From Paecilomyces variotii (Eukaryota): a DNA stretch of 64,000 bases. Numbering within the stretch: the stretch's first letter is position 1; every line of letters starts with the position of its first letter. Where the stretch lies: NCBI GenBank assembly GCA_004022145.1, contig RCNU01000003.1; one strand, 5' to 3'. The position numbers were made by a program, and so were the translations under genes. The notes under the pieces are model-generated. The model worked only from the letters and a program-made list of their open reading frames with translations, was not told where the DNA came from and made no database searches. This document shows, one piece after another, positions 2,950 to 50,221 of the stretch.

Positions 2950-3498
2950 ATTTGTGGGGATTAATCATCAAGGACCGTCATGATCTGGAGTATTGACGGC
3001 AGACGGGTGCCATTTGTACGTTTAGAAGATTCCATTGTCTTCGGAGCAACTATTGCGTGTGTATATCTATAGCAGTGAATTGGTTCTATCGTTTGTGACA
3101 TCTCTTTTCGGTTCTCATTGCTGCGGTTCTAAGGTAGATCTGATCAGTTCCAATGAATATATCCCAAACAGGAGACATCCCGAGTGTAGATTATCTGAAA
3201 CAACAATGGCTGCGATGGGTCCAGCGCTAATAGCATGCTTCTAAGGACCATCATTCTAATTGTTATCTTTGCCGCACAGCCTCCCCCAGGTGGGAAGAGA
3301 TGGCACCTCACGGTAGCATCGAAAGAGGATGCCGGAATTGCCAGGCGACTGATTGGCCTATCTGATGAGGATGGCTGTATGTATGGTACTGTCATCCATC
3401 ATTTTTATGCTCAGCCCCGTGTAATATTAGTCATCTCTGCATATCAACCTGCTCAGCCCATCAGCCCCTCGCAGCCTCAGCTGGCCATATAAGCGTAG

Positions 3499-4807
3499 GA
3501 TTGTCCTCTACGATATCTGTTTCCTCATCTTCTTCACTACCAAGCGGAAGGGCTCTCCTCGCGCAATCATCACCACCACTGCCCCTGGGGCCTTTTTAAA
3601 GAAGCCCCAGCGATTCGACCATGTCGACCACCAGCGCTCAGATCAACGCCAGCGTTAAGAACATCGCGGGTTTCTTCAGACCAGCGATACAGGCCACATG
3701 CCGCAGCGTACCATAATTTCCAGCAGTTTGATTCTTCTTTCTATTCTATTGATTTTCTACCCCAGTCTCATCCGGATCTTCAATTTGATTTCTCTTCCGT
3801 CCCGTCTGAGCAATTAGATTGCTCGGGTCTTGCTCAAGGTCTCTGGGACGATTCGTATCTGGAGACACAGCAAGAACAGCTTTCTCAACCATCTTTATCA
3901 TCATTTTCTTTCGATCAGTTTGGTGTCTCGGATTCCCAAGATACCTCTTCAGTCCCTACGCCGCTTGATCAATTTCTTGCATCTGCGACTACATCTGTTC
4001 CTCACTCTGAAGCTGGCGAGGTCTCTTTCACTGGACTTATTTCATCTGCCGAGATCTTTCCTCAGGATTTGGCAGAATCACAGTCTTTCTCTGAATTTCC
4101 TGGCCAGTTTGATTCTTTCTGTTCTCCTTCTGAAGATCTCCTTTCATTGGCGAGAGAGGATTCTCACGAGGGACAATTGGTTCAGACAGAAGGTTCGTTG
4201 AGTGGTTTGAGATTTTGTTCTTGTTTCCTTTTACTAAAGAGTAGAGACAGAGCATCAAGATTTAATGAGTGGAACTATCCTTCAACAACCCACGTTCAAC
4301 CCGAGAGCTGAGCGCCTTTCACCCTCTCGACCTTCACCGAGCTGTCTCTCTTTCTCAACCTTCCAGCTCGGTAATCGACTATCAGCTAATAGGGACCATG
4401 CATCGTCTCTGACTTCTTCGCGTACTGCTGACCATTATCAAACTTCTCAAACTTCTGCTTCCGAAGCCCAGCCAACCAGTCCGTGCTATTCCTCATCTAA
4501 CTCAGCATCCAACCGTGAAACCGTTCTCGAGCCATCGAGGCGAGGCAAGCGGTCGTTTGACGAGAGCACGTTGCCTAGTACGAAAAGCGCGGAGAATTCG
4601 GAAGAAGATAAAATCGTTGAGAAAAGACGACGCAATACTCTTGCCGCGCGCAGGTTCCGTCAGAAGCAACAGGATCGAGTTACGAATCTGGAAGCGGAAC
4701 TGGCCATAGTTACGAAAGAGCGCGATGAGCTGAAGATGCTGGTTGCGAGGTATCAAGGGGAAACGGAGGCGTTGAGGAAATTAGTTGCTGATGGCAAGAA
4801 AACATGA
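3499..4807 (+). CDS. jlbA: bZIP transcription factor of the JlbA/IDI-4 (Gcn4/Jun-like) type; true start unresolved
   Basis: Basic region EKRRRNTLAARRFRQKQQDR plus leucine zipper in 4265-4807. Upstream frame is open 3499-4192 with an acidic/aromatic stretch and joins in frame via intron 4193-4244 (acceptor 4250 is also in frame). No in-frame ATG before 4265. The start coordinate is the frame opening, not a demonstrated start codon. Confidence 0.8.
3621..3716 (+). promoter_or_regulatory. Out-of-frame uORF (31 aa, MSTTSAQINASVKNIAGFFRPAIQATCRSVP) overlapping the bZIP gene's open frame
   Basis: ATG in good context (gaccATGt) downstream of TATAA at 3488-3492, stop TAA at 3714-3716. A second out-of-frame uORF runs 3698-3817. 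Confidence 0.55.
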
Positions 4808-6023
4808 TTCTCCGCATATGGATTGATAACTTTCGAAATAATATGATGGTAATACAATCTCATTCACTATTAAGGACTTTTTCCACCCACCAATGTAGTC
4901 CATGTCACTCGCCGTAACCTACATATCCTCGGGAAATCACCCCCTCTTCTGTATCAGAACAGTTAGCATCAATCCGCACAGAAACCACAACCGATAACTG
5001 ATCACCAAAAAGACGTGAAAATGCGAAGCACTCAGACGATGTCGGCCATCAACTCAACCCCGAAAAGCATTCTCTTCCTAGATCTTATGGGGGTTCCTCA
5101 TATGATAATGATAGTATAATCAGAAATGGTCTGTAATATCTTCATAGTGCCCCAGGGTCTTTTGTCCTTATCGGACAATGCCTCGCAATTGCGTTCATAT
5201 AGATATATGGGGAGGGGGTGCCTTACCGAGTAATATATCTGAGAGAAAAAACGGATGAATGATATACCTGCGAATTATTCTTATCATGAGAAGATGTAAT
5301 CGCGAAAGAATACAAAAGCAATATAAGACATCTAGGAGATTGTCTAACTAACTATATGTTGCTTACGATCAGTTTATACTGTTAATCTGTATACTACAAC
5401 ACTATTATAATAATAGCAATTGCTACGAGAATCGAAGTGATTACTCAGTATCTCTCATCTTTTAATTAATACTTCTGTAGTCATCTTTTGTCGAATGTTA
5501 CTCTTTCTTAGGAGTGTTATGTCTTGTGCGAATAGATGTTGATTCTATTCGTGTTGGATAGATAGTTAGTTACTGGTCCATATGCTAACCCTGCTAACAG
5601 TGACAGGGGTGATGAAGTTCGTATGGCTAGATGTGGTAAGTCGTCCTAGTATAATGATGGATTGCGAAGGATGAGCAATTCTTATTCTTATTCTTACTCT
5701 CGAGGTCCAGGGAGTAGAATCACAGTATCTAATTCGATGAGAAATATATCGAGTTGTCTTTCTTCGTCGGAGGACAGATAATATCTTGTTCTTTTTTTTT
5801 TTTTTTTTTGCAACTTAACTATCTACTGCATTTTGGGTATTCCGTGCCTGCTAACTATTCCCGTCTATTATTAATTTCCCAGGAAGCCTTGCATCTCTTC
5901 TACGCAGCAGCTGAGAAAAAAGTCCGCACAGCCTAACTAACTGCATAAACTTAATTACGGACGCTTATGCACAGTGTCCGTATTGTAAGGTGAGATACAC
6001 AGATTGAAACGGGATTAGCGCGA

Positions 6024-6032: not shown

Positions 6033-7389
6033 TCTTGCTCATCGTGAGTGATTTTGCGCTAAGCCTGTCTAGACTCGGGACTTGTGGGGATTGATGCATT
6101 GGGGTCTATCTTTAACTCATCTGGGACTAACTTACGGGATGTGCTATGTTGAAGCGGTGTCTACGGAGTAGAATACTATTATGTTCTCTAGATTGCGGAA
6201 GTCGGGAGAGTTGCTGTGTTCTGGGGATGCAGGACAGGAATAACTTGGAGCTGCTTGGCTGGTTTGAGTCTAGAGTATTGGGCCATAGTCTTACTGTAGC
6301 TTTTTTTGAAATACAGCTGTCGATATTTTGGACTCTCTATTTTTCTCCGGATGAAATAGAACAATAAGTCTGACTTCCATATTCGATTACCTGAAATGGA
6401 GACCAGACCTATCCTGTGATCTCCGTGGCTGCAGCTTTGGAGAGCTACTCCGCACGGTCATGCTGTCTTAGCCACCAATGATGTTGCATGGTACACCGAT
6501 CAATAAGAGTGAGATTTACCATCCCAGGAAGGGAGTTGATTTTAAACGCCTGGAAGATCCTCCATGGACTAACAGTCAATGTTCTCGTTCCATGATCACA
6601 ATGCTACTCTCTCTGTATGGAGTTGATTCATTATGAGAGAGAGCTTGGCCAGTGCTGCGGCGGCTGCCGGGATAGCGCGCAAGCTAAGAATGACAGTCAG
6701 CATGATTTCCGAGACAGCTGGTCTCAAGACCTCAGCACAGATGGATGTATCGAGTGTCATTGATATTATCCCCATTGAAGCTCACAGTCCAGCGCGGAGG
6801 ATTTGCGTTAGATACTTGAACTTCCGATCGCGGGGTCGCGGAAACGCTGCCGGCCTGTAGGTCGTGAACGTGGACAGCTCCTGTTCTGCTCTCGCCGCCC
6901 GAGCAAGACCGCAACTAACTAGCCTCAATCTGGGGTCTGCCCTGATAACGAATTCAAGGCCACGTCCCACCGCTACACCACCTTCTCCGCCCATCGCTCT
7001 CACGACCGGTTGATTCTTAATGTGTTGCGGAGAAAGTGGCACGCCTCAGGCTGTCTTCGTTCCCCTCCGCGGGTGCCTTCTCCGATCACGACGCTGCCGT
7101 GGCTCCATCTCCCACGCAGAGCATCGAGCTCGTCGACTTCGATCGGGCGCACACCGGTGAGCGCAGGCAGCTTGCCACCTTCCGGGATTCTGACACCGCC
7201 GAGAGACACGGTCCTGAGGTCGGATACAAGGATCGTCTGCCTGAAACAGGGCAGGGGCTTGGTCGTTCCGGACGCGGAGAAAAGGACGCAGACGACCTTT
7301 GTCAACAGCACGTCGAACGGAAAAGATACTGGGAAGAAGCAGTTAGACATCGCGTTCAGGTCGCGCGGGGCGAGAGAAAGGAAGCCAAA

Positions 7390-10260
7390 ATGAAGTTCTC
7401 CCACAGTCTTCAGTTCAACTCCGTTCCGGACTGGAGTGCCTACTACATTGGATACAGCAATCTGAAGAAATTGTACGATTGACAGACGACCCTTATCGCT
7501 CAATCGATACAGATGCTAACCGCACTCTTCTCAACAGGATCTACGGTCTGGAAAAGCAGGTCCACCAACCGGATGGACAAGATGCCGGAGATGTCGAATC
7601 CGCTCCCCTCCTGGATTCATCCATTGATACAGATACGATCTTTCGACGGGCTCTCGACGCGGAGCTGGAGAAAATATGCTCGTTCTATCAGGTCAAGGAG
7701 ATGGAAATCTTTGCTGAAGTCGAAGACCTGGTGAAAGACGAGCGGGCCTATGCTGCTGACACCGATGGCATCAACATGGATCCAGTCAGCGAGACCGTCA
7801 TCAAGGCGCGAGGGTTGAGTTTCAATTCGAGACAGCGGCCCGGCAGCTTCTATCGGACTCTGACCGTGGCCCGTGGTCGACGTGCAAGCACAATTAGTGA
7901 ATCTGCCGGTGAGGAGGAGGAGGGAGATGATGGTGATAGTGATGACGAAGATCAACCAGAGTCCCCGAACGGAACGAGACGAAAACGCTCCCCGTCTCGG
8001 TCTTCTCGTTATCGAGACTATGATCCCTCAGAGGGAAATCCTAGCGAACTCGGAGATTCGAGGCTGCTAGCAGACTCGAGGATTCTGGGCTCGGAAGGCC
8101 GGTCCACAGGTCGCCCGGCACTCCACGAAGACCACTTGCAGGACCCGCGGTTTATGATGCTATACAACGCCGGCGTGACACTGAAGAAACGGGCCATCAG
8201 TGTCTATGTGTCTCTCTGTGAGCTGAAGTCGTATATCCAGCTCAACAAGACGGGTTTCTCGAAGGCGGTGAAGAAATACGACAAGATACTGGATCGGAAC
8301 ATGCGTCGTCAGTATATGAACACAACGGTCTCTCCCGCATACCCCTTCACGGATGCGACAATGCGGAAGCTGGACGAGAATATTGCCCAGGTCGAGAAGG
8401 TATATGCAGATATTGTAACCAAAGGTGATGTTCGCCTGGCAAAGCGTGAGCTGCGTCTGCATCTCCGAGAACATGTGGTATGGGAACGGAACACCGTCTG
8501 GAGAGAGATGATTGGAATCGAAAGAAAGGCGCAGGCAGCAAATATGGGAATTCGTAGGACTCTGCTGGGCGGAGACCAGTCTCCTTCTACTGCTCAACGG
8601 CAAGGCGATGTGGAAGGGACTGAAATTACCGAACTCAAGACTCCTCTTGGTCGCTACAATGTCCCAGGATGGCTCTGCAGTTTGAGCTTCGGAACCCTGA
8701 TCGCTATTCTGATAATTTTCGCTGTGCTCCTAAACGTCCCGATTCTGAAGAAACCCGAACAACAAAATTGTCTCGCTATGCTGGTCCTTGTCAGCTTACT
8801 GTGGGCTACTGAAGTAGGTATCGCCGTCCCTTGCACTTCGACCCGTACTGACTAGTTACTGTCAGGTTATTCCCCTATTCGTTACTTCGTTGTTGATTCC
8901 TTTCCTCGTAGTGGTTCTGCGTATCATGAGGTCCGAGAGTAAGCCCCATGAACGTCTAGAGCCAAAAGCTGCAACCGCCGCGGTGTTTGCGTCAATGTGG
9001 ACTCCTGTCATCATGCTGCTGCTTGGTGGATTCACCATTGCTGCTGCGTTGTCGAAGTACGATATTGCCCGTCGGATGGCGACCTTTGTTCTCAGCAAAG
9101 CCGGCACAACCCCCCGGACCGTCCTTGTCACCACCATGTTTGTCAGTATGTTTTTGAGTATGTGGATTAGCAACGTCGCGTCGCCGGTTCTGTGTTATTC
9201 CATCATTCAGGTAAGCCCATGTACATTATACTCTTATTTCGACTTGCTAATGCGAGATAGCCTCTGCTTCGAAACCTGCCTGCGGACTCGAACTTCTCCA
9301 AGGCTCTCGTTCTAGGAATTGCTCTCGCTGCAAATATTGGAGGCGCTGCATCGCCCATTGCCTCTCCTCAAAACATAATCGCATTGCAAAATATGTATCC
9401 CAGTATCAGCTGGGGCACGTGGTTCTTCATTTCAATTCCAGTTTGCATTTTGTCGATTCTCTTGATCTGGGCACTCTTGCTCGCCACTTTCCATCCCGGG
9501 CGAGGCACCATCATCGTCCCCATTCGGCCCGTCAAGGACAGGTTCTCCGGCGTACAGTGGTTCATTACTATCGTCACCGTCGCGACGATCATCCTGTGGT
9601 GCGTTAGCCATCAGCTTGAACACATATTCGGTGACATGGGAGTCATTGCCATTATTCCGCTCGTGCTCTTCTTCGGAACGGGTATCCTCACCAAAGAAGA
9701 CTTCAACAACTTCCTCTGGACGATCATCATTCTCGCTGCCGGTGGCCTCTGTCTGGGCAAGTCTGTCACCTCGTCAGGTCTTTTGCACAATATCGCTGGT
9801 GCCATCACCGACAAGGTCGACGGGTTGAGTCTCTATGGTGTACTCCTGGTCTTCGCTTCATTAATTCTCGTGATCGCCACTTTTATATCTCATACAGTCG
9901 CCGCTTTGATTATTCTCCCACTTGTCCAGCAGGTTGGTGTTGGGATGAACGACCCACACCCGAACTTGCTCGTCATGGCCAGCGCGCTGATGTGTTCCGT
10001 CGCTATGGGTTTGCCGACAAGTGGATTCCCCAATATGAGTAAGTCGCCTTTTCAATCCGACTTCGTCCATTTTCATTTGTTATGTGGAGTATCCGCTAAT
10101 CCATCTACCCTCAGCTGCTATTATGATGGAAGTTCCCCAAACCGGCCAACGCTACCTCCGCGTCCAACACTTCCTCACTCGCGGTATCCCAGCCAGTCTG
10201 CTCTCTTTCGGTGTGGTGGTTACTCTCGGATACGGCCTCATGGTCGTGGCGGGCCTATAG
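7390..10260 (+). CDS. PHO91: SPX-domain low-affinity phosphate transporter (Pho87/Pho90/Pho91 family)
   Basis: SPX start MKFSHSLQFNSVPDW and LKSYIQLNKTGFSKAVKKYDK, followed by a DASS-like membrane domain (SMWISNVASPV, LPTSGFPN). Exons 7390-7472, 7538-8813, 8866-9210, 9261-10038, 10115-10260 are all in frame. Which yeast paralog it corresponds to is uncertain. Confidence 0.93.
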
Positions 10261-48881: not shown

Positions 48882-50221
48882 ATGGCTCCGCGCAAGGCTG
48901 AGAAGGCTTCCACAGCTGGAAATGCGGCCTCCAAGGCTTCTGCTAAGAAATCAGGCGCAAATGAGGTATGATCTGCAACTTATCTCAGGTGTTATATGTT
49001 GTGTCGCTAACACCGTATGAATAGGCCTCGTTGCCTCCACAACTCATTGCGTCCGTCGCCGCTTTTCTGTCCGAGAACGGTTTTCAGAAGGCCAGCGAGG
49101 CATTCCTCAAAGATCGGAAGGCAGGAAAGACTGCAACGGAATCCAAGGATGTCCCGTCTTTGATCGATCTCTACAAGAGTTGGGAGAGCCAGAATGGCAG
49201 TGCCGGTGCTAAGAAAGCTGCCAGCCCAAGCAGCTCCAGCGAGAGTGACAGCGAAAGTGGCAGCGAAAGTGATAGTGAGAGCAGCTCAGATGAGTCTAGT
49301 GACTCCGACGTTGAGATGGGTGATGCTCCCAAGAAGACCAGCAGCAGCTCCTCTTCATCCTCGTCCTCTGCTTCCTCCTCCTCCTCGGAGTCAGACAGCG
49401 ATGCCGATGATGAGTCCGAAGAAGAAGCCCCTGCTCCCAAGTCTGGTGGCGTTAAGCGAAAAGCCGAATCGAGCTCCTCCGAATCCGAGTCCGACTCTGA
49501 ATCTGAAGATGACGCTCCCAAAGCGAAGAAGGCTAAGATCTCTAAGAAGGAAGAGTCAGAATCCTCCAGCTCTTCCTCCTCTGAGTCTTCTGACTCTTCT
49601 GAATCTGAATCTGAGTCGTCATCCTCTAGCTCCGAATCCGAATCTGGATCCAGCTCTGAATCCAGCTCTGACTCCGACTCCGACTCCGATTCTGATTCCT
49701 CCTCTTCTGACTCGGAGAAGGACACTTCCAAGAAGGCAGACAAGGCCGCCCTGAAGCAGGCAAAGAAGACACCTCTTCCTCCTTCCGATTCTAGCTCGAG
49801 CGGCTCGTCTTCGGACTCCTCGTCTTCTGATGAAGACGCCAAGCAGAAGTCCTCTAGTGACAGCAGTACTACTGTGAAGAGCGCCTCTTCTAGCTCCGGA
49901 AGCTCTTCCGACTCTTCCAACGGTTCTTATAAGAAGGCTGCCTCTGCGACTCCGAGCGGAACCAACAACGGTCCCCAGAAGAAGAAACACACCGGAGCCA
50001 AGCCTACCCCTTTAGCTGAGTTGAGCGCTAAGGCTCTGCCGAACGAACACCCGTCCAACGATTATGTGCCGTACGCGTACGCTGAGAAGGCGTACCGAGA
50101 CCTCGTCGTGACACGTGGAAAGGGATTCACCAAAGAGAAGAATAAGAAGAAGCGCGGCTCCTACCGTGGCGGTCCCATCGATATCGGCCCTAACCCTATG
50201 GCCTTCAAGTTCGAGGACTAG
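48882..50221 (+). CDS. SRP40: SRP40/Nopp140-like nucleolar Ser/acid-rich protein
   Basis: Exon 48882-48965, intron 48966-49024, LisH-like VAAFLSENGF, alternating S/D/E and K tracts, SRP40_C motif RGKGFTKEKNKKKRGSYRGGPID. Confidence 0.92.

Follow-up and report, generated by a model that had tools for sequence, protein, structure and literature searches.

A probable JlbA/IDI-4-type bZIP gene of Paecilomyces variotii whose acidic domain lies in an AUG-less frame behind a conserved-peptide upstream open reading frame

The window described here is a 64,000-nucleotide (nt) stretch of contig RCNU01000003.1 of Paecilomyces variotii (assembly GCA_004022145.1), and the subject is a gene on its plus strand for a transcription factor with a C-terminal bZIP, probably the Paecilomyces JlbA. 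The frame that continues into the bZIP encodes an acidic, aromatic and Ser-rich N-terminal domain, and there is good evidence from its composition and conservation that this domain is translated. The frame has no AUG in the dominant messenger RNA (mRNA), in which it is preceded by an upstream open reading frame (uORF) with a strong AUG of its own and a conserved peptide. Most likely, one mRNA gives rise to two proteins, namely a long activator and a short protein with the bZIP and a linker, and the long form might tentatively be ascribed to a near-cognate start codon.

Organisation of the locus and its transcript

The main frame opens at 3499, immediately behind a TAG at 3496-3498, and reads without a stop through 4311 (Table 1). 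Over 3499-4300 only three ATGs occur in any of the three frames, at 3621, 3698 and 4265; none lies in the main frame across 3499-4192, and ATG 4265 falls into the main frame once 4193-4250 is spliced out. An earlier interpretation drawn from the letters alone (hereafter the sequence-only reading) had described an AUG-less frame without stops between 3499 and the donor at 4193, spliced in frame to the bZIP exon, with ATGs 3621 and 3698 out of frame, ATG 4265 as the first in-frame one, and the open reading frame (ORF) from 3621 ending at CCA-TAA (3711-3716). The sequence and its RNA joint, the direct listing of ATGs and the translation agree with this description throughout. Its list of in-frame near-cognate codons was correct in every codon and coordinate given and missed only AGG 3691; the set ahead of 3800 consists of CTG 3517, ATT 3613, ACG 3646, AGG 3691 and ATT 3748, among which ATT 3613 is the sole one that lies both inside the observed transcript and 5' of the strong AUG 3621.

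Table 1 Features of the bZIP gene and its leader, with positions numbered from the first letter of the window.
Feature	Position	Strand	Details
TATAA box-like element	3488..3492	+	GCCATATAAGCGT at 3484-3496; putative function
Transcribed region (mRNA)	3541..4876	+	RNA contigs; true ends may fall slightly outside
Leader hairpin just 5' of ATT 3613 and AUG 3621	3585..3610	+	-13.5 kcal/mol, z -2.12, 6/200 shuffles equal
In-frame near-cognate ATT, candidate start	3613..3615	+	G at -3, C at +4
AUG uORF, 31 codons	3621..3716	+	MSTTSAQINASVKNIAGFFRPAIQATCRSVP; stop TAA 3714-3716
In-frame near-cognate ACG, candidate long-form start	3646..3648	+	T at -3
Stable local hairpin	3663..3688	+	-11 kcal/mol, z -4.16, 1/200 shuffles equal
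Second AUG ORF, weak context, 39 codons, third frame	3698..3817	+	C at -3
ATG-free stretch, all three frames, 564 nt	3701..4264	+	
Pro codon and stop of the uORF with the base that follows (CCA-TAA-T); candidate site of a +1 shift	3711..3717	+	
Acidic/aromatic, Ser-rich N-terminal domain frame without AUG (exon 1 coding part)	3717..4192	+	
Intron, 58 nt, GTTCGT...ACAG	4193..4250	+	donor GT 4193, acceptor AG 4249-4250; RNA joint
First in-frame AUG; putative start of 180-residue short bZIP form	4265..4267	+	
bZIP basic region and leucine zipper	4604..4783	+	Pfam
Main ORF stop TGA	4805..4807	+	

The second exon consists of a linker and the C-terminal bZIP. In the translation from 4247, residues 121-167 scored 25.2 bits for bZIP_2 (PF07716; cut-off 22.3, E 1.8e-5), while bZIP_1 (PF00170) reached 24.4 bits and stayed under its cut-off of 27.6. 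With the bZIP at the extreme C-terminus, the N-terminal part of the protein is acidic, Ser-rich and, beyond Paecilomyces, poorly conserved; the part encoded by 3717-4192 matched no Pfam family and shares 100% identity with a model from Paecilomyces variotii that bears the name of a bZIP regulator. The ORF that begins at ATG 3698 is probably incidental; the P. lecythidis model has T-H there, not T-C, which precludes an ATG.

RNA contigs from four runs (X1, X3, X5 and X6, belonging to three studies) were placed on 3400-4900. Their 5' ends lie at 3541, 3551, 3555 and 3558, which is 49-70 nt 3' of the TATAA element, and the missing contig cover 5' of 3541 is not evidence for a transcription start site. 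On the other side the contigs end at 4873 (X1 and X3), at 4876 (X5, followed by adapter letters) and at 4769 (X6); three runs ending at 4873-4876, one of them running into adapter, suggest a polyadenylation site about 70 nt past the stop codon. The sole intron in the RNA is 4193-4250, the joint of which is present in four of four runs, so the contigs derive from complementary DNA, and the peptide across the junction, ...VQTE-E-HQDLMSGT, is the same in public models. Upstream of the intron the contig pieces cover 3551-4190 (X1), 3555-4190 (X3), 3558-4093 with short pieces to 4190 (X5) and 3541-4190 (X6), and over about 3541-4190 the long pieces match the window with 0 mismatches and 0 gaps. There is thus no assembly indel, including between 3621 and 3716, where the sequence-only reading had pointed to a sequencing error as one way to undo its own interpretation. 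As the contigs are unbroken and carry a single intron, the dominant mRNA gives the acidic frame no AUG.

RNA contigs from two differently labelled organisms (A and B) are both identical to the window across the gene. Residue 13 of the uORF peptide is K in the window and E in the public P. variotii model P0004; by this one-base difference the window is another strain than the P0004 record.

The transcript also bears on another explanation, namely a rare or conditional splice that removes 3n+1 nt and joins ATG 3621 to the main frame, in which case the observed mRNA would represent a non-productive majority that retains the intron. Two introns come into question, 3654-3723 (70 nt), which the sequence-only reading had itself raised as a rescuing intron, and 3708-3765 (58 nt), used by P0004. 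Both have GT..AG ends and belong to the right length class, the public models for the three Paecilomyces relatives all rely on an intron of this type, and since assembled contigs lose rare variants, a rare or conditional splice may escape them and its absence is no proof. Nevertheless, neither candidate, nor the equivalent of 3666-3726 used by P0005, was seen in the contigs of the four runs, including X5, where pieces with a depth of about 4.6-4.7 were retained beside others of about 4700-5300 and no 5' joint occurred among the matches listed. The three public models place three junctions (after residues 29, 15 and 29) with two acceptors, and such disagreement is typical of gene prediction that has to arrive at an ATG. 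Further, the donors GTTAAG and GTACCA are without G at +5, and no branch site of the consensus CTRAY is evident. The 70-nt intron would delete FFRPAI, a conserved motif of the uORF peptide, and the 58-nt intron would delete QFDSSFYSIDF, which is kept in the P0005 model. The predicted first intron of Aspergillus nidulans jlbA is likewise absent in RNA sequencing (RNA-seq), according to the section on that gene in Etxebeste 2021 (PMC8396895). Taken together, rescue by splicing seems quite improbable.

Coding signal in the AUG-less frame

Of 5000 dinucleotide shuffles, 5 left the main frame open over 3499-4192; for 3717-4192 alone, 103 of 20000 did so. Within 3717-4192 the frame displays a clear codon periodicity, with A at 0.03-0.09 in codon position 1 and 0.28-0.38 in position 2, and T at 0.44-0.45 in position 3. 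The frame is also open in three Paecilomyces relatives as far as protein models tell, all comparisons having been made on such models, the N-termini of which are predictions. The acidic part is 90.3% identical to P0005 and 85.9% identical to P0006, two Paecilomyces models, and the exon-2 linker is 96.5% and 81.6% identical to the two Paecilomyces relatives, the only indel being one codon. As the linker lies 3' of AUG 4265, it is part of either protein form. The open frame, the periodicity and the linker-like conservation provide good evidence that 3717-4192 is translated, and in the models of these relatives the frame upstream of 4265 is open and conserved, where stops and a lack of coding constraint would have told against the sequence-only reading. 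Protein searches returned no ORF calls that extend upstream in the main frame, the close relatives being the three Paecilomyces models, and in a search of metagenome contigs 312 pattern stretches were matched, none of them from a relative. Across 112 family models Met makes up 1.06% of the 22428 residues upstream of the basic region, and 49 of the 112 have at most one internal Met; neither figure has a matched baseline, and nothing is concluded from them.

These signals have to be set against the view that only the short protein is made, from AUG 4265, and that 3541-4264 is a long regulatory leader. Such a reading was reached for A. nidulans jlbA (AN1812) from RNA-seq, as set out in the part of PMC8396895 devoted to this gene. 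In addition, a relative's model, P0028 (179 residues), begins at the equivalent Met, and an ATG-free stretch suits a leader that is scanned through. However, a leader would not hold a 231-codon frame open in phase with the bZIP exon, as the shuffles of 3499-4192 illustrate (5/5000), and an untranslated one is not expected to show strong codon periodicity or to match the translated linker in protein-level conservation. The acidic and aromatic composition is that of an activation domain, and without the acidic part the protein would have no obvious one. A short protein as the only product therefore appears improbable.

The upstream open reading frame at AUG 3621

The AUG at 3621 has a strong context (gACCatgT), and its uORF encodes a peptide in which the motif FF[RQ]PA[LI] occupies residues 18-23. 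Among 168 proteins compared the motif is present in seven, always at residue 18, and the carriers are the window uORF, the Paecilomyces models P0004 and P0006, and the Onygenales models P0011, P0018, P0019 and P0021; this conservation is taken from gene models that fuse the uORF with the main ORF. Judged by these models, the uORF peptide is old and of the conserved-peptide type, its conservation being that of a conserved-peptide uORF. The hairpin at 3663-3688 overlaps the codons for the conserved IAGFFRPAI of the uORF, and what is conserved in this segment could be the RNA, the peptide, or both.

Compared with P0019 and P0021, P0018 shows a difference of one Leu directly after FF[RQ]PA[LI], which may reflect a shifted predicted splice site or a true 3-nt indel. 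In three models from Ajellomycetaceae (P0010, P0015 and P0017), the main frame is conserved for about 40 residues further upstream (RRNA..N..N..A.P.G...DESL..Q.HY.QSLPS); one of them begins at an in-frame Met and two with a MAVT... leader, and the start problem in that family may be of a different form.

The end of the uORF raises the possibility of a programmed +1 frameshift. At CCA-UAA-U a fraction of ribosomes would skip U 3714, read AAU and enter the main frame, the first 31 residues of the long protein would be the uORF peptide, and the ribosomes that terminate would reinitiate at AUG 4265. Omitting T 3714 yields ...SVP-NFQQFDSS, in which the trans-frame ...CRSVP is joined to NFQQFDSS; the main-frame counterpart of this join is ...AAYHNFQQFDSS. 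The layout resembles that of antizyme (OAZ), where an AUG-started short ORF1 ends at a stop and the +1-frame ORF2 is without a start codon of its own. A frameshift would account for the strong AUG and for the exact point at which its ORF stops, the place where the acidic, T-rich coding signature of the +1 frame sets in. It would also account for third positions that are C-rich in the uORF frame and not in the main frame over the same span. The conservation of FF[RQ]PA[LI] and of its offset across Paecilomyces and Onygenales fits a protein N-terminus or a nascent-peptide effector, and three Paecilomyces models start at AUG 3621 and need a 3n+1 intron, which amounts to a shared +1 offset. Moreover, termination after Pro is slow.

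However, CCA-UAA-U is no known shift site and not that of antizyme, which is UCC-UGA-U (GCG-UGA-C in yeast OAZ1), and a tRNA-Pro in the P site cannot re-pair in the +1 frame. No stimulatory 3' structure beyond chance was found either, as the fold 3' of the uORF stop was no better than shuffles (z 0.00) and that of 3680-3760 gave z 0.85, and Rfam returned no match for an RNA element at the locus; the protein is unrelated to antizyme. Of residues 8-17 in the uORF peptide, 10 of 10 are different when P. variotii is compared with P. lecythidis, a pattern met more often in regulatory uORFs than in protein N-termini. Chromosomal +1 shifting is very rare in fungi, with three yeast genes listed in the relevant passage of PMC12719033, while the same alternative was raised for Neurospora cpc-1 in Ivanov 2017 (PMC5487733), in its account of that gene. 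On balance, frameshifting ranks second among the explanations, though it is rather unlikely. A wider version, that JlbA/IDI-4 activators throughout the Eurotiomycetes are made by a +1 shift at the Pro-stop of a conserved 31-codon leader ORF, with FF[RQ]PA[LI] tuning termination versus shifting, is somewhat less likely still. If true, one mRNA would yield either a bZIP-only protein, by reinitiation 550 nt further on, or the full activator, and this would be the first frameshift-controlled fungal transcription factor, with a new class of shift site.

Two other observations concern the same region. The fold just past the uORF stop pairs about 3719-3735 with about 3808-3826 and encloses about 75 nt, its overall z being 0.00. 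A ribosomal hop from CCA 3711 to CCA 3720 was dismissed, as it would remain in the uORF frame and meet a TGA two codons later.

A further way of supplying an AUG would be an excision of the HAC1/XBP1 kind, in which 20 nt (3704-3723, between CCG/CAGC and CAG/CAGT) are removed and ATG 3698 is joined to the acidic domain, giving M-P-Q-F-D-S-S.... Both sites fit CNG/CNGN, the Ire1-type cleavage pattern, and a removal of 20 nt, which leaves a remainder of 2 on division by 3, brings ATG 3698 in frame. Induction would also fit, since A. fumigatus jlbA is translationally induced by endoplasmic reticulum (ER) stress, as given in the jlbA entry of PMC3943501. Yet the twin stem-loops are missing (160 of 200 shuffles folded equally well over 3680-3760), ATG 3698 has C at -3 and is precluded in P. 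lecythidis by T-H, and no 20-nt joint occurs in the RNA contigs. The sites at 3701-3727 were accordingly judged a coincidence, for want of structure, RNA joint and a conserved ATG, and the explanation is hardly credible.

The ATG-free corridor and AUG 4265

Between the uORF region and AUG 4265 lies a stretch free of ATG in all frames (3701-4264), and this absence was matched in 2 of 5000 dinucleotide shuffles. When the codon order of 3724-4191 was shuffled, zero ATG resulted in 6 of 5000 cases. The 567 nt between ATG 3698 and ATG 4265 form the longest ATG-free gap on the plus strand of the 64-kb window, and five ATGs follow in the 540 nt directly past 3701-4264. As there is no AUG in the corridor, scanning or reinitiating subunits can get to AUG 4265, and the absence would be expected if scanning subunits must traverse it. 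The Met at 4265 is kept in P0004, P0005 and P0006 (DLMSGT), and the P0028 model begins with it (MTRTILQ), hence it is present in four of four close relatives seen.

On the minus strand, 49622-50178 holds a comparable ATG-free gap of 556 nt. Elsewhere on the plus strand of the window, and by reading of translations alone, open frames look like parts of a cation/H+ exchanger-type membrane protein (1-669), of a multi-exon gene that ends in something akin to a ribosomal protein S7-type domain (1593-2949) and of an SPX-type membrane transporter (7347-8855). Rfam also gave a snoRNA-like match on the minus strand, which stayed under the threshold (15.8 bits, gathering score 42, E 0.81) and was taken as chance.

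Placement in the JlbA/IDI-4 family

The peptide LKMRVSKL, encoded by a published primer for A. fumigatus jlbA (AFUA_5G01650), is found in P0025, P0026 and P0072. Since P0025 and P0026 are the only Aspergillus proteins that match the window protein, its presence in these matches makes the window gene probably the Paecilomyces JlbA, in the JlbA/IDI-4 group. The two also have GETEALR in common with the window protein, and the search was run one way only. Their similarity is confined to the bZIP (E 6.6e-9 and 1.3e-8, 17-21% coverage); in general, outside Paecilomyces only 14-25% of the query aligns, corresponding to the bZIP, and ESM Atlas returned generic bZIP clusters only.

Several members of the group have been studied. 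For Podospora anserina IDI-4 a CUG start has been proposed, the CUG being conserved in Neurospora, according to the part of PMC5487733 that treats this gene. IDI-4 and Neurospora crassa ZIP-1 (NCU08055) share with the window gene the C-terminal bZIP and, probably, the placement in the JlbA/IDI-4 group, whereas the window gene has no in-frame CUG inside its observed transcript (CTG 3517 lying upstream). In the window, the AUG-less frame is preceded by the uORF with its strong AUG and conserved peptide. For A. nidulans jlbA, the gene-specific section of PMC8396895 proposes a long 5' untranslated region (UTR) and a start at Met175. As in the window, the first intron that would link an ATG is there absent in RNA, the leader is long and an in-frame Met occurs shortly before the bZIP; yet the upstream frame was read as 5'UTR in that account, while the window frame shows periodicity and protein conservation. 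Translational control has been described in two cases: A. fumigatus jlbA shifts to polysomes and is translationally up in ER stress (PMC3943501, in its data on this transcript), and synthesis of Neurospora ZIP-1 needs eIF2-alpha phosphorylation (PMC10241597, in the portion on ZIP-1). In an A. fumigatus UTR-mapping paper jlbA had 0 occurrences, and a literature search returned no description, for the JlbA/IDI-4 family, of a conserved-peptide uORF or an AUG-free corridor.

Two other bZIP systems, outside the group, offer comparisons. For cpc-1, the corresponding pages of Ivanov 2017 (PMC5487733) point out that uORF2 always lies in the -1 frame and name +1 frameshifting as a formal alternative to a near-cognate start; the same alternative applies to the window. 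The N-terminal extension of cpc-1 starts at near-cognates and its accepted main AUG still gives the full activator, whereas the first in-frame AUG of the window (4265) lies past the whole acidic domain; the two also belong to different bZIP families. In C/EBP-beta, one mRNA produces a long activator and a DNA-binding-only isoform (LAP and LIP), as in a two-product reading of the window, and an out-of-frame short ORF together with a weak or near-cognate upstream start sets the isoform ratio, in the brief treatment given in PMC5487733. However, the downstream starts of C/EBP are reached across ordinary coding sequence, while the gap in the window is 564 nt without AUG in all frames, and the likeness is one of mechanism only, the proteins being unrelated outside the bZIP.

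Two products and the start of the long form

Most likely, then, one mRNA yields two proteins, and all the data agree with this. Most scanning ribosomes would start at AUG 3621, translate the uORF and terminate at Pro-UAA (3711-3716), and those subunits that resume scanning, or that have leaked past the uORF AUG, would reach AUG 4265 and produce the short linker and bZIP protein. The long form with the acidic activation domain (3717-4192) would begin at a main-frame near-cognate codon in the leader. The best candidate may be ACG 3646, as the hairpin 3663-3688 starts 14 nt past it and could hold a scanning 43S complex over the ACG; ATT 3613, just 5' of AUG 3621, would be the alternative. According to PMC11165317, structure at a set downstream spacing promotes non-AUG starts; the spacing was 14 nt in studies before it and 20-23 nt in its own experiments. 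Finally, the balance between long and short form under stress would be governed by the uORF and its peptide. The structure of the transcript, the missing AUG, the uORF with its motif, the ATG-free stretch and the hairpin are observations, whereas we infer the making of both proteins, the start codon of the long form and the regulatory logic.

A near-cognate start is ranked first because it has precedent in the family, because it is far commoner in fungi than frameshifting, and because of the spacing between the ACG and its hairpin. Several points weigh against it. The contexts of the near-cognates are poor, with T at -3 for both ACG 3646 and CTG 3517, and G at -3 combined with C at +4 for ATT 3613. 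ACG 3646 sits 3' of a strong-context AUG that should capture most ribosomes, and the four 5' ends of the contigs all lie downstream of CTG 3517, which is of the strongest codon type. With four or five candidate codons, a hairpin at the right spacing from one of them could arise by chance, and as this hairpin also encodes the conserved motif, it may have another reason for existing. In addition, over 3621-3713 the third positions are not coding-like in the main frame (A 0.43) and coding-like in the uORF frame (C 0.48). The stretch 3499-3716 taken alone was open in 813 of 5000 shuffles, and openness so common in shuffles is not itself coding evidence upstream of the uORF stop. A near-cognate start of the long activator is thus a tentative first choice that falls somewhat short of an even chance.

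Implications for the family

An AUG-less anomaly is already on record twice in the JlbA/IDI-4 family, where it has been explained in two incompatible ways. Regarding the sequence-only reading, which had proposed non-canonical decoding of a full-length factor beside a short form from ATG 4265, the gene structure, the uORF and the idea of the short form hold, while the novelty it assumed is reduced by the CUG proposed for IDI-4 and by the intron missing from A. nidulans jlbA. The window gene is a further member of a family for which AUG-less expression has been proposed before, and it adds the conserved-peptide uORF and the AUG-free corridor.

Amino-acid starvation, ER stress and cell-death signals are the cues to which JlbA/IDI-4 factors respond, and for two members control at the level of translation is known. 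As the Paecilomyces models conflict with each other and with the RNA, the N-terminal annotations across the family are probably wrong. The window bears on the published conflict between a CUG start, as proposed for IDI-4, and a short protein from Met175, as proposed for A. nidulans jlbA, and it does so as a clean, single-intron case that combines a conserved-peptide uORF and an AUG-less activation domain with an AUG-free corridor and, downstream, a conserved AUG.

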